Notes: generated by a model not told the origin, from the letters alone. 19,863 nt of DNA from Candidatus Heimdallarchaeota archaeon (GCA_018238545.1 JABCTC010000056.1:1-19863); one strand, 5' to 3'; numbered from the stretch's first letter, positions 2,561-6,171 are shown. Numbers and translations: made by a program.

Positions 2561-3028
2561 CTTACAATAACTGAATCAGTTCTCGTTAGAGAGCTAGCTA
2601 TTAAATGGGAGGAAGTTGGTCTACAAGTTGTTAAAGAGCTTGTAGTCCCCATTATTGACAATATTTACTATGATAATTATCTGGAAGGGAGAGATTCTAT
2701 TCGTATTGACCTTGCAGCATATGATCCTCATAATGATAAAATTATTTTCGTTGAAGCTGAGAATGGTCTTTATCTCCCTCACCCTCAGATTTATTTGCCT
2801 TTTTGCAATGAATTGTATGTTTTGTGTCCTGAAGACAATTCATCATTTAGAGATGAACAAGTAGATTGGAGCAAAAAGGAGGGGATAGGGATAATTGAGA
2901 TGAATGAAGAAAGGAACATCTCTACATCCCTTGGAGCAACTTCAAGGAAGATTTATCCTGCTGTGGAAGCTTACGTTAAATCTAGGCTTTTCAAAAAGAT
3001 CGAGAAGGAGAGGAAGAAAAATTGTTAA
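2549..3028 (+). CDS. PD-(D/E)XK restriction-endonuclease-fold protein (MmcB/Holliday-junction-resolvase-like); probable start ATG 2558
   Basis: Helix with E (TESVL), then RIDLAAY...IIFVEAE, a Q-x-Y motif (HPQIY..FCNELYVLCP) and GIGII. The catalytic Lys position holds Glu. Confidence 0.6.
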   Translation: MKDMLTITESVLVRELAIKWEEVGLQVVKELVVPIIDNIYYDNYLEGRDSIRIDLAAYDPHNDKIIFVEAENGLYLPHPQIYLPFCNELYVLCPEDNSSFRDEQVDWSKKEGIGIIEMNEERNISTSLGATSRKIYPAVEAYVKSRLFKKIEKERKKNC

Positions 3029-6000
3029 GATTAGCTACCAAAAGGAAGAAACACAAATTTTTAGGTTCTAAGAAAGCTATCTACTTCATAAGAGATGAAG
3101 ATGAAGTTATTCTCTATGCTGCATTTATTATCAAACCACATAAAGAAATCCCAAAAACTGACAATAAATACAAGTCAAGATATTCTTCTTACAATCAACC
3201 TGAAGAAACGAAACTACCACTCTTAGAAGTGTTGAATCAAGTTAAGATGCTTAACACTTCTCTTCTAAGGAAATTCATTCCAGGTAATGTGAAAAAGAAA
3301 AACACCAAAAAGGAAAAAGCGAAAGGGTCAAAGAATCCAGAATCGCTCATTGATGATTTATTCCAAGATGAACAAAGTGATATGAATGTAACTTTGTCTT
3401 TTCACATAGTAAAGGTTTGGAAGAAATATGAGCTATCTAAAACCTTTCACACAATTGATGAGTTAGCTGAAGATTTTGCAGCCTTACTTCGAAATGAGTT
3501 AAAGCAAAAACTTGAGAGTACGGGTAAACTTGGCAGGTTGGTAGGCGATACGCTCAAAGAGCTTGTTCTAAATGGGTCTCTTGACCACGGAAATTTCCTC
3601 GATGTAGGAAAAAACACCTTCAGTGAGTTAACAAAAAATTACACCATTATCGAGAAAAATGAAGATTTTGTTAAATCATTTTTGCCAGGTCCTGCTGTAG
3701 ATCTACGTCCTCAAAGTGTCTTTACTTTTCCCACAGGAATAACTTCTCATGATGGTTTAAGTTTCGGTTTATCTGAAAACGGAAAAGCTATCAGTTTTCC
3801 AGAAGATTTCTCATATCCAATATTACTTGCAGGTGACAAGAAAACTCGAGAAATAATTTCTAACAGATTATTAGAACAAAACAAAAAATTCATCATTCTT
3901 GATCCTAGAGCAAATTTAGAATTTGAAGATAGAATACACTCTGATTTCGAAAAACTAACTCTTGGAGAGAATTTCTTCTTTAACGTTTTAACACCTGTTA
4001 CAAGAGACAATTATGTTTCAGAACAGTTATCATCGCAATATCTAGGTAATTTCATAGAGATAGTTCAATCTATCACAGATGTAAGATCAGATGCGGCAAT
4101 ATTGCTACGAGATTTGATTGATTTTTATGTTAATGAATATCAGGAAGAACAAGATGAAGTTTTGTTTGCTAAACATGATACGCCAGTTTCTTTGAGTGAT
4201 TTATACAGCATGTTAACAATTGAACCTGGTGGTTTAGTAATAACAGATTTTCAACTTTCCAACATACGGACCATAATCAATGATATTAGAGACCCAAGTA
4301 TAGGAGAAAACACTAGGATTGGAGAGAAAGTAGGACTAGAAGAAATTTTCAAAAGCAGCAAAATAATTGACTTTAGCTCACTTGGATACAAAGTTCAAAA
4401 ACTCTTCTTGTACTCTTTTCTTTTACAATTAACTATTTATGAGCAATTGGAAAAAGAACCTGAAGAAATAATAATCTATATTGATGATGCTGAATTGTTC
4501 TTCGCAAGGGATATAGAAAGAACAGTGTTATTACATATTCTCAGTAAACTTGAAAACAGTCCTTTCAAGATTATTTTCTCCACCCCTTATCCATCACAAC
4601 TAGCTATATCTATTTTTGATTCAACATATAATCGAGTTATTGGTAATCTGAAGTCATCTAAATGTGTTCGATTAATCTCCGAATCTCATAGCTTGGACAA
4701 GAATCAACAAGAATTCGTCCGTAGACTTCCTCGCAATAATTTCCTTTTAGTCAGGGAAGATTTGATGGAAAAACCACTAATCCTGCGTTTCTTTGAAGAG
4801 GATATTGAAAGACACAATTCACAAATGGTAAAACGCAGAAAATCTGAAGACGATACTCATGGAAAAATGGATGACAGCGCTTTATCAATCAACGCTGAAG
4901 ACTTCTCCAAGTTCCACCCAGTAATGTTAGAAGTGTTAGATAAACTATCCTCAAAAGCCAACAGAGGAATTAATACAGAATCTTTAGCAAAATTATTCCC
5001 TAATTGGCCGGAGAATAAAGTGAGAGAAGCGGTTTCGCTTTTAGAGATCTTTGGTTACATCTTTTACGAAACTGTAGATAAACGGGGTAGAAAAGGTGAA
5101 TATTGGACAAAAATAACTCCTAGAGGAGAAAAGTTTCTCAAGAAGTTGAAATTCAGTCATCTAGTCGTTGAAAGGAACAAGAAGTTAGAAGAAGAAACTC
5201 CTGAAGAAGAGGAAACAGTAACAACCGAAGATGTTCTAGAAGACTTAGAAAATTATATTGAAGATTCAAATGTAGAAATAAGAAATGAACCATCAAAAGA
5301 GCAATCACTTCTAATCAAAAAACTTCAGAATATAAGGAAGGTTGTAAGAGTTACCAGGGATTCTGAAGATAATAAATATACAAAAATGGATACTTTGAAT
5401 TCCTTACTTATTCAAATACCTCCTCTATTCAAAGAAGATATATCAGAAGAAACTCAAAAACTAGAAATCTTTCTAGGTTCGTTGGATAACCTCCTAAAAG
5501 AGGAAGTATCAATGGATGGGATTCCACAGAAAGTTCTCGATAAGATTTTTCACAAAGCACTTTCACTCATAGATGCGATTCAAATTAAAACAACCTATGG
5601 AGATAAATCAAAAAATATCCAAGATGAGGAATTTATTGAAAAGGTAATAGAAAAAGAATTGGGGACAGAGAAATGGAAGGAGTTTGATAGAGATATCTTT
5701 CTAACAGAAATCCCAGAATTATCTTCTCTTAGGAGAGAAAATAAGAAGTTGATGGGTTTACTTGATTCCGAAATTCCTGATGACATAATAAAAAGTTTGG
5801 ATTTATCAGATGATTTGTCACAAGAAGAATTCTCTCAAGTGATAAAAAAAGCTCTCTCTTCTTTACTACAGATTAAGACATCATTTTTCCCTAAAATAGA
5901 TTCTGAAGAGTATCTAGAGCAGATTAATACTTTCTTCAAAGCAGCTGGATTACCAGAACCTTTTGAAAAATCACAACAATTACTATGGGAACATTCTGTC

Positions 6001-6171
6001 CTAAATAAGAAAGGAAACTATGCTGCACCTTATGTAGCCATAAAAAGGAGAGAGATTATCGAAAGTATTCAAGAGGAAAATGCTGCATTTTGCTTCGATA
6101 TGGATAAGAGTAAGGGAGGATTAGTTGGTCAACTGATTGAAAGTATTAAGAAGAAAATGAAGAGGGGGTAG
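3022..6171 (+). CDS. Large degenerate HerA/VirB4/TraG-like P-loop ATPase with winged-helix domain and helical C-terminal region
   Basis: Motif order matches the FtsK-HerA superfamily: LSFGLSENGKAI, ILLAGDKKT (decayed Walker A), FIILDP, LGENFFFNVL, SLSDL, KIIDFSSL, IYIDDAELFF (Walker B), IIFSTPYPSQL..IF. A wHTH follows (VREAVSLLEIFGYI...KITPRGEKFL). TTG start overlaps the upstream gene, with GGAG upstream. Confidence 0.65.
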   Translation: MLRLATKRKKHKFLGSKKAIYFIRDEDEVILYAAFIIKPHKEIPKTDNKYKSRYSSYNQPEETKLPLLEVLNQVKMLNTSLLRKFIPGNVKKKNTKKEKAKGSKNPESLIDDLFQDEQSDMNVTLSFHIVKVWKKYELSKTFHTIDELAEDFAALLRNELKQKLESTGKLGRLVGDTLKELVLNGSLDHGNFLDVGKNTFSELTKNYTIIEKNEDFVKSFLPGPAVDLRPQSVFTFPTGITSHDGLSFGLSENGKAISFPEDFSYPILLAGDKKTREIISNRLLEQNKKFIILDPRANLEFEDRIHSDFEKLTLGENFFFNVLTPVTRDNYVSEQLSSQYLGNFIEIVQSITDVRSDAAILLRDLIDFYVNEYQEEQDEVLFAKHDTPVSLSDLYSMLTIEPGGLVITDFQLSNIRTIINDIRDPSIGENTRIGEKVGLEEIFKSSKIIDFSSLGYKVQKLFLYSFLLQLTIYEQLEKEPEEIIIYIDDAELFFARDIERTVLLHILSKLENSPFKIIFSTPYPSQLAISIFDSTYNRVIGNLKSSKCVRLISESHSLDKNQQEFVRRLPRNNFLLVREDLMEKPLILRFFEEDIERHNSQMVKRRKSEDDTHGKMDDSALSINAEDFSKFHPVMLEVLDKLSSKANRGINTESLAKLFPNWPENKVREAVSLLEIFGYIFYETVDKRGRKGEYWTKITPRGEKFLKKLKFSHLVVERNKKLEEETPEEEETVTTEDVLEDLENYIEDSNVEIRNEPSKEQSLLIKKLQNIRKVVRVTRDSEDNKYTKMDTLNSLLIQIPPLFKEDISEETQKLEIFLGSLDNLLKEEVSMDGIPQKVLDKIFHKALSLIDAIQIKTTYGDKSKNIQDEEFIEKVIEKELGTEKWKEFDRDIFLTEIPELSSLRRENKKLMGLLDSEIPDDIIKSLDLSDDLSQEEFSQVIKKALSSLLQIKTSFFPKIDSEEYLEQINTFFKAAGLPEPFEKSQQLLWEHSVLNKKGNYAAPYVAIKRREIIESIQEENAAFCFDMDKSKGGLVGQLIESIKKKMKRG

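Follow-up and report, generated by a model that had tools for sequence, protein, structure and literature searches.

A degenerate HerA/VirB4-like protein of Heimdallarchaeaceae, a candidate scaffold for a nuclease and a helicase

ATPases of the HerA-FtsK superfamily are known as ring motors that pump DNA. One precedent for the locus described here is the PINA-Hjm-Hjc assembly of Sulfolobus, in which a ring ATPase is reported to be linked with Hel308 helicase and PD-(D/E)xK nuclease (PMC6061704); in the crenarchaeal Ced system, VirB4/HerA-like ATPases are found with polytopic membrane proteins and DNA import serves repair (PMC11868833, PMC11823120). We describe protein X, a degenerate HerA/VirB4-like protein of 1049 residues encoded by an intact open reading frame (ORF) on the plus strand (3022..6171) of a 19,863-nucleotide stretch of DNA (GCA_018238545.1 JABCTC010000056.1:1-19863, hereafter the window) from a Heimdallarchaeaceae genome; the close homologues of X are all in metagenome-assembled genomes of Heimdallarchaeota/Heimdallarchaeaceae. 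The gene is translationally coupled to a nuclease gene upstream and a helicase gene downstream, with stop and start codons that overlap or abut. We consider it probable (roughly 0.58) that X, as a HerA-FtsK superfamily member without catalytic activity, serves as the non-enzymatic scaffold of a DNA-processing machine, holding nuclease and helicase for repair or recombination, possibly at the membrane. Full-text literature searches returned no description of the X family, and a survey of archaeal Ski2-like helicases makes no mention of this family (PMC10946056).

Fold of the core and state of its motifs

HMM-to-sequence (hidden Markov model) searches of Pfam and NCBIfam identified no ATPase family for X, with no match to the VirB4 family of Pfam (CagE_TrbE_VirB), and neither the single protein nor a family profile matched any PDB sequence even at an E-value of 10. 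Homology to the superfamily was seen only in a profile search of 1.84 billion representative proteins, in which genuine DUF87/HerA_C proteins were returned with E-values of 1e-6 to 5e-4, and with hhalign, which matched the family alignment (A1) to an alignment of five genuine DUF87/HerA_C proteins (A2) with a probability of 96.5% and an E-value of 8.7e-10. An AlphaFold2 (AF2) model based on a 19-sequence alignment of orthologues had a mean predicted local distance difference test (pLDDT) score of 68.9; over residues 241–600 most 10-residue blocks averaged 70–91 and three averaged 51–69. A Foldseek search of the PDB returned HerA, VirB4 and DndH-C as top matches to residues ~231–611 (E ~1e-10), and VIA-align scored the same region at Z 25.6 to DndH-C (7es4), 24.8 to VirB4 (4ag5), 22.5 to S. 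solfataricus HerA (4d2i) and ~20.7 to TrwB, over 326–330 aligned residues; against full-length TrwK the root-mean-square deviation (rmsd) was ~14–15 Å. Because these Z values are tied within the resolution of the method, we file the domain under the HerA-FtsK superfamily and choose no branch within it. A HerA/VirB4/DndH-type fold for the core of X, as claimed in the initial annotation, is confirmed at the level of the predicted structure; this ASCE (additional strand, catalytic glutamate) ATPase-fold domain spans residues 231–611 (3712..4854; this and all other features of X are on the plus strand) and carries a helical insert at ~334–422.

The initial annotation had further claimed that every catalytic element of this intact pseudo-ATPase is changed, with a list of motifs and positions that proved right to within a few bases. 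Our mapping of ORF, fold and motifs agrees for Walker A, the catalytic Glu, the arginine-finger block and the sensor Gln, but the first Asp of Walker B is kept in most orthologues. The Walker A remnant, ILLAGDKKTRE, covers residues 267–277 (3820..3852, with AGDKKTRE at 3829–3852) and lacks the GxxxxGK[ST] pattern: hhalign pairs G271 with the Gly of the HerA GK[ST] and D272 with the Walker A lysine, and makes the P-loop of X five residues shorter than that of HerA. The model, which has a strand at 267–270, a helix from 273 and a two-residue loop between them, agrees with this deletion. Canonical P-loop nucleoside triphosphatases need a glycine-rich loop to hold the beta-phosphate; as this loop is gone, alignment and model together make it very likely that X has lost canonical nucleotide binding. 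The Walker B remnant, IIIYIDDAELFF, lies at residues 483–494 (4468..4503), with the DEAH of HerA replaced by DDAE (4483–4494). Here hhalign places D488 at the Walker B Asp, D489 at the catalytic Glu and E491 at the His of DEAH, and the segment reads IYIDDAE in place of hhhhDE with its catalytic Glu. The genus-g5 orthologue has INNAE at this position, and in place of D488-D489 the Heimdallarchaeum orthologue has Asn-Asn and P0037 has Asp-Asn. At residues 509–513 (4546..4560) X has KLENS, of which K509-L-E511-N512 aligns with the E-x-R-K block of HerA (E453, R455 and K456, all invariant in the HerA set), which we take to be the arginine-finger region, and at 519–525 (4576..4596) FSTPYPS occupies the place of the sensor TQxPS, T521-P522 pairing with TQ and Pro standing in for Gln; both the arginine finger and the sensor Gln are missing.

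The core is preceded by a beta-rich domain (residues 1–230; 3022..3711) with AF2 strands at 11–39, 78–91 and 120–137, helices at 145–184, and pLDDT of 73–87 outside the loops. Foldseek and VIA-align searches with the full-length model gave no structural match over these residues and no HAS-barrel was recognised, while language-model matches to VirB4 N-terminal families were weak (0.79–0.82, a range often reached by shuffled sequences). The core is followed by a winged helix-turn-helix and a further helix (residues 625–727; 4894..5202), a Glu/Asp-rich linker predicted to be disordered (~728–757; 5203..5292), and an all-helical C-terminal region (758–1049; 5293..6171). Pfam RPA_C (PF08784) matches residues 599–687 (26.5 bits versus a cut-off of 22.6, E 1.1e-5) and was found in 14 of the 19 orthologues (E up to 1), and the winged helix is structurally closest to the PadR/MarR fold (Z 11–12.3, rmsd 2.0–3.3, ~95 residues). 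The linker, with pLDDT below 50 at 723–757, varies in length and sequence among orthologues; the tail consists of AF2 helices throughout and contains conserved alignment blocks, and it had no usable structural match in searches with the full-length model and no usable language-model match in a protein-atlas search with the C-terminal 295 residues. Winged helix, linker and helical region had all been proposed in the initial annotation, and Pfam, AF2 and the structural matches support them as real. X has no transmembrane segment.

Conservation, selection and descent

The degenerate motif states are common to all 19 aligned orthologues, which share 39–92% identity, as well as to P0038 and P0039. 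The orthologues as a whole cover five genera at 37–92% identity; none of them has intact Walker motifs, and purifying selection is strong. Invariant in the 19-sequence alignment are G271, D272, R276, D488, E491–F494, S520, T521, P524, S525 and N537. Against the two closest orthologues the ratio of nonsynonymous to synonymous substitution (dN/dS, Nei-Gojobori) was 0.056–0.067 over the whole of X, 0.023–0.034 in the ATPase-like domain, among the lowest of any region, 0.016–0.065 in the winged helix and 0.08–0.09 in the C-terminal tail. Because the replacement residues do not vary and constraint on the protein is strongest in its dead core, we take X to be kept for a function. An apparent defect in the genus-g2 orthologues, flagged as one TAA inside the gene, was dismissed as a sign of broken genes since it is the natural stop a few residues early and the genes are intact.

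The residues that replaced the motifs are invariant in the genus-level alignment, which shows that the old active-site region still has some use, and X could be a cryptic enzyme that binds a nucleotide or another ligand at the remodelled site or performs new metal-dependent chemistry with D272, D488, D489 and E491. We regard such an enzyme as very unlikely: only ~2 residues of the P-loop are left, without a glycine-rich anion hole, the D488-D489 pair is replaced by Asn-Asn or Asp-Asn in the orthologues named above, and distant relatives carry quite different residues at the acidic-cluster positions. A second use of a dead ATPase domain would be as the sensor or oligomerisation module of a transcription factor with a PadR/MarR-type winged helix, acting on the cluster itself or on a damage response. 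The winged helix does resemble regulators of these families at the Z scores given above, it is among the most conserved parts of X in the alignment and by dN/dS, and a 12-mer, TTGAAAGACATG, is shared by the starts of two transcription units. However, a dead core of ~380 residues that is the most constrained part of a 1049-residue protein exceeds what a regulator needs, translational coupling to nuclease and helicase suggests a stoichiometric complex, and Pfam places the winged helix with RPA32C, a protein-binding winged helix, making a regulatory role for X as a whole quite unlikely.

The X gene is single-copy and present in 27 of 30 genomes of the family, including 5 of 5 high-quality ones, and a full-length profile (E 1e-5) did not detect it in 273 other genomes of the phylum. 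Across genomes X has 92, 90, 84, 60, 58, 53, 48, 44 and 38% identity to its orthologues, and the active HerA of the same genomes, in the same order, has 96, 94, 89, 75, 72, 67, 65, 62 and 65%; the two fall in the same order, from which we conclude that X has descended vertically, at a faster rate. Other Heimdallarchaeial lineages have more distant X-like proteins, among them P0051 and P0052 and those from genomes of families f5 and f6. These also lack Walker A and B, with replacement residues that differ from those of X, and the only Walker-intact relative found was P0057, an unplaced 674-residue protein with an ATPase domain and a winged helix-turn-helix. Since the loss of the motifs is common to orthologues and distant relatives while the replacements differ, sequence comparison indicates that the inactivation of X is old, with later lineage-specific fixation, and is not recent decay. 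A fusion of P0057 with a domain like that of the small nuclease, suspected by eye, was rejected at an hhalign probability of 0.1%. The genome that carries X encodes on another contig (C114; L018 1903–12585) an intein-containing MCM, Hel308, a GINS subunit, CTP synthase, NurA and HerA, the last with 497 residues and normal motifs; because canonical NurA-HerA, Hel308, MCM and GINS are thus encoded elsewhere, X is an additional paralogue, and the working HerA is a different protein.

The gene cluster and its possible role

The gene immediately 5' of X in every Heimdallarchaeaceae locus encodes a small PD-(D/E)xK nuclease-fold protein of 156–159 residues (2549..3028, plus strand; likely start ATG 2558). 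Its AF2 model (pLDDT 88.4) matched 3dnx best (Z 16.0, 133 residues), with AF1548, NucS and Hjc-type nucleases next, and E27, D51, E66 and E68, numbered from the Met at 2558, are invariant in 13 orthologues; no signal peptide, transmembrane segment or PADLOC match, HamA included, was identified. The TTG start codon of X overlaps the stop codon of this gene in the string ATTGTTAA, and the TTG is a credible start because orthologues share the same N-terminal sequence. The stop codon of X in turn lies 4 nt ahead of the ATG of a Ski2/Hel308-like superfamily 2 (SF2) helicase of 725 residues (6176..8353, plus strand; Pfam DEAD and Helicase_C), which matches the NCBIfam Hel308-type models (E 2e-49, 168 bits), below their equivalog cut-offs, and also matches Hachiman HamB models (E 1.6e-37, 127 bits). 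Helicase motifs I, II and VI are intact (GKT, DEFH and QxxGRAGR). A SWIM-like CxCx9CxH is present at residues 526–539, with a sub-threshold Pfam SWIM score (16.3 versus 19.6 bits), and both CxCx9CxH and DEFH are kept in the nine orthologues checked, from four genera.

A scan of species-representative genomes with the small-nuclease alignment recovered 26 loci, 25 in Heimdallarchaeaceae and one, L054, more distant. In every Heimdallarchaeaceae locus with a long enough contig the gene order from a ~470–490-residue membrane protein to the helicase is identical, and in other genera the genes upstream of the nuclease are co-directional and tightly packed. Seven genes make up the conserved cluster. 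The first encodes a surface protein of ~610 residues whose N-terminus resembles a signal sequence; two of the three orthologues examined also have a transmembrane helix at the C-terminus. This gene heads the cluster except in genus g5, where it is on the far side of the helicase. The second product is the ~470–490-residue membrane protein (M492 type; 2–3 N-terminal transmembrane helices), the third a ~218-residue membrane protein (M218 type; 4–5 transmembrane helices) and the fourth a RecA/RadB-like ATPase with intact Walker A and B, and the PD-(D/E)xK nuclease, X and the Ski2/Hel308-like helicase with its SWIM-like motif are the fifth to seventh. The three membrane or surface protein genes are always followed by that of the RadB-like ATPase (3140–8256 on the minus strand of L028; 1981–7066 of L031). 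None of these three proteins had a match in Pfam, NCBIfam or, by phmmer, among PDB sequences, and neither Pfam nor NCBIfam has a family for five of the seven conserved genes. Outside the family, genome G291 (family f6) brings together M218-like, RadB-like, Hef, X-like and nuclease genes, and L054, of the P0051 type, has genes for an M218-like protein, a 200-residue ORF, an XPD-like helicase and the nuclease, facing those for a Hef-like helicase without an ERCC4 match, a 557-residue ORF and a 1208-residue X-like protein; no RecA-like protein was detected on L054. The nuclease-alignment scan had recovered L054, which encodes a 93%-identical relative of P0051, whereas no locus was recovered when genome contigs were scanned with P0052 or metagenome contigs with P0051.

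We favour a role in repair or recombination because the neighbours include repair helicases (Hel308-like, Hef or Hef-like, and XPD-like), and RadA/RadB paralogues in two of three lineages. By analogy with its active relatives, X would assemble as an oligomer, possibly a HerA-like ring, and would hold the small nuclease as HerA holds NurA, DUF4297 or TdpB, with its winged helix and helical tail contacting DNA or a partner. The ATP-driven motor activity lost from X would be supplied by the SF2 helicase, and perhaps also by the RecA-like ATPase. The substrate would be damaged, broken or incoming DNA, to be passed to RadA-family recombinases, and the membrane proteins would dock the machine at the cell envelope. 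The initial annotation had suggested a scaffold or an adaptor recruiting the helicase and RadA, an interpretation that is partly supported: the 4 nt gap and a gene order found in 25 species speak for coupling to the helicase, but a RadA paralogue is adjacent in this genus only, and the conserved RecA-family neighbour of the cluster is the RadB-like gene upstream, which is on another contig here.

Several points weigh against a nuclease- and helicase-holding scaffold. The ring is proposed for X by analogy, the activity that matters most could sit in the N-terminal 230 or C-terminal 290 residues, and the winged helix could act in gene regulation instead of substrate binding. Shared ancestry partly explains a gene order conserved within one family, independent support for the linkage is limited to the two more distant loci, and in family f5 the X-like proteins are accompanied by no such neighbours. 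In addition, the membrane-protein genes may be a separate operon that merely lies beside the nuclease-X-helicase trio.

If the membrane proteins do belong with the trio, the cluster could be read as an envelope-spanning apparatus for DNA import or exchange, analogous to crenarchaeal Ced or bacterial competence. The surface protein, and in this genus a giant Ig-repeat (immunoglobulin-repeat) protein, would be receptor or adhesin, the membrane proteins the channel, and X a dead VirB4-like hub at the cytoplasmic face, with nuclease and SF2 helicase processing and pulling in the DNA and RadA paralogues recombining it. Three of the seven conserved genes do encode membrane or surface proteins, the M218-type gene also keeps its linkage to X-like genes in two further lineages, RadA-family genes lie on the flanks of the cluster, and Ced offers a precedent for VirB4/HerA-like ATPases paired with membrane proteins; the ATPase-like domain fits VirB4 as well as HerA (Z 24.8 versus 22.5), and the N-terminal domain gave the VirB4-family leads noted above. 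However, those leads lie in the score range that shuffled sequences often reach, Pfam and NCBIfam revealed no pilin, VirB3, VirB6 or CedA similarity among the cluster proteins, and both X and the nuclease lack transmembrane segments, the latter also a signal peptide. Moreover, ATPase activity, which is required of VirB4/CedB in known systems, is gone from X, and we regard import as a possible but doubtful function. In our view also fairly unlikely is that the cluster, extended in this genus by a giant adhesin and a RadA paralogue, is an unrecognised envelope-associated machine of Heimdallarchaeia for DNA exchange or for uptake and repair, in which the superfamily motor would have been silenced and the SF2 helicase would have taken over. 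Linked to this is the idea that the SWIM-motif helicase and the RadA paralogues prefigure the eukaryotic SWIM (Shu/SWS1)-RAD51-paralogue-HELQ axis.

In the genome studied here the cluster is disrupted. The window starts with an IS481-family transposase gene (16..948, minus strand) and a gene for an AAA_15/AAA_21 ATPase of the OLD/Gabija type (1036..2070, minus strand), and its first 1000 bases have a GC content of 47.6% versus 31–35% elsewhere. The four upstream cluster genes are on contig C96 (L028), followed by three unknown ORFs of 184, 188 and 390 residues (C96:1–3140), whereas in the close relative L031 only a 72-nt gap separates the RecA-like and nuclease genes; from this insert, this gap and the position of the upstream genes we conclude that an insertion split the cluster. 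The inserted DNA looks like a mobile or defence insertion, and an additional ~1 kb also separates the RecA-like and nuclease genes of the closest relative, L030.

With such an insertion sequence and an OLD/Gabija-type ATPase adjoining the locus, nuclease, X and helicase might be thought a resident module for anti-virus defence similar to Hachiman, Nezha or Dnd/Tdp, the more so as the top structural matches to X include DndH-C, TdpA and the HerA subunits of SIR2-HerA and DUF4297-HerA complexes, and as the helicase matches HamB. However, transposase and ATPase are specific to this genome, the helicase scores higher against Hel308 models than against HamB (168 versus 127 bits), the nuclease has no HamA match, X itself has only a 23-bit mad8 match, and known HerA-based defence systems retain an active ATPase. 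Defence systems are typically patchy in distribution, whereas X is single-copy and nearly universal in the family, occupies a fixed position and has diverged in parallel with the housekeeping HerA. On this core, vertical and syntenic distribution and the lack of a HamA match, a defence role for the cluster is unlikely.

Downstream of the helicase lies a RadA/Rad51-family paralogue with a helix-hairpin-helix N-domain (8427..9644, plus strand; Pfam Rad51 E 1.2e-57). The genome has four strong Rad51-family genes, of which this one does not score best, and it adjoins the cluster in this genus only. The two copies of the 12-mer mentioned above are at 2549–2560 and 8448–8459 (0.01 expected by chance), each ending in a plausible true-start ATG, that of the nuclease (2558) and of the RadA paralogue (8457); the regions upstream of the two copies, when aligned, showed no extended shared element. 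The Ig-repeat surface protein (2110 residues; 9659–15991) has a signal peptide and a C-terminal transmembrane anchor, and a related giant protein flanks the cluster on the opposite side in genus g5 (L052; L053 2–4960), by real linkage or as one of a set of paralogous repeat proteins. An sfsA frame at 19327–19686 encodes the N-terminal OB (oligonucleotide/oligosaccharide-binding) domain only (119 residues) and ends near the window edge.

Comparison with known systems

New here are the mapping of the P-loop deletion, the measures of selection, the distribution restricted to one family and the cluster of seven genes with its link to membrane proteins. A free-standing protein without a phosphate-binding loop, whose dead core is under the strongest constraint, suggests that the HerA-FtsK fold can be kept purely as architecture, and in X it is found in a family-wide core gene of the Heimdallarchaeaceae, a group close to the eukaryote root. 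The uncharacterised cluster joins membrane proteins to recombination-type enzymes, and understanding it would add a DNA-repair or DNA-exchange pathway to Asgard biology.

In its ATPase-domain fold (Z ~22 over ~320–330 residues; hhalign 96.5%), its adjacent nuclease gene and its DNA-repair context, X resembles HerA, the hexameric DNA translocase that partners NurA in archaea and bacteria (PDB 4d2i, 7f6d, 9x1m). It differs in the truncated P-loop and in the replacement of the Walker A Lys, catalytic Glu, Arg-finger block and sensor Gln, as well as in the added winged helix, acidic linker and 290-residue helical tail; its partner nuclease is of the PD-(D/E)xK type and is not NurA, which this genome encodes with HerA on C114. 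The likeness to VirB4/CedB-type ATPases, which act in type IV secretion and in DNA import by archaea (PDB 4ag5, 7o42; Ced, PMC11868833), consists of the fold (Z 24.8), a large N-terminal domain and adjacent genes for polytopic membrane proteins, but X has lost the catalytic motifs and has no VirB4 Pfam match, and the N-terminal similarity comes from weak language-model scores only. DndH-C, the best single structural match (Z 25.6, 327 residues), and TdpA (PDB 7es4, 8wet) also work with a nuclease, but these are active ATPases that serve phosphorothioate-sensing defence from patchy islands, whereas X appears inert, is core to one archaeal family and is inherited vertically. The nuclease-helicase pair is likewise not the HamA (DUF1837)-HamB pair of Hachiman, and the distribution of X is again core and vertical.

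Degenerate FtsK-like domains of EccC/EssC from type VII secretion, which still bind nucleotide, are a precedent for HerA-FtsK domains with lost or weakened catalysis acting as regulatory or structural modules. These domains (PDB 4nh0, 4n1a, 6tv1; structural match to X at Z 12–13.7) share a chain with an active domain, whereas X is free-standing and its sole ATPase-fold domain has no P-loop. The cluster would offer a clean test case for pseudo-ATPases that organise nuclease-helicase complexes. The layout we propose would parallel those of HerA-NurA, HerA-DUF4297 and TdpA-TdpB, but the energetics would not, the proposed motor being the neighbouring helicase and perhaps the RecA-like ATPase.

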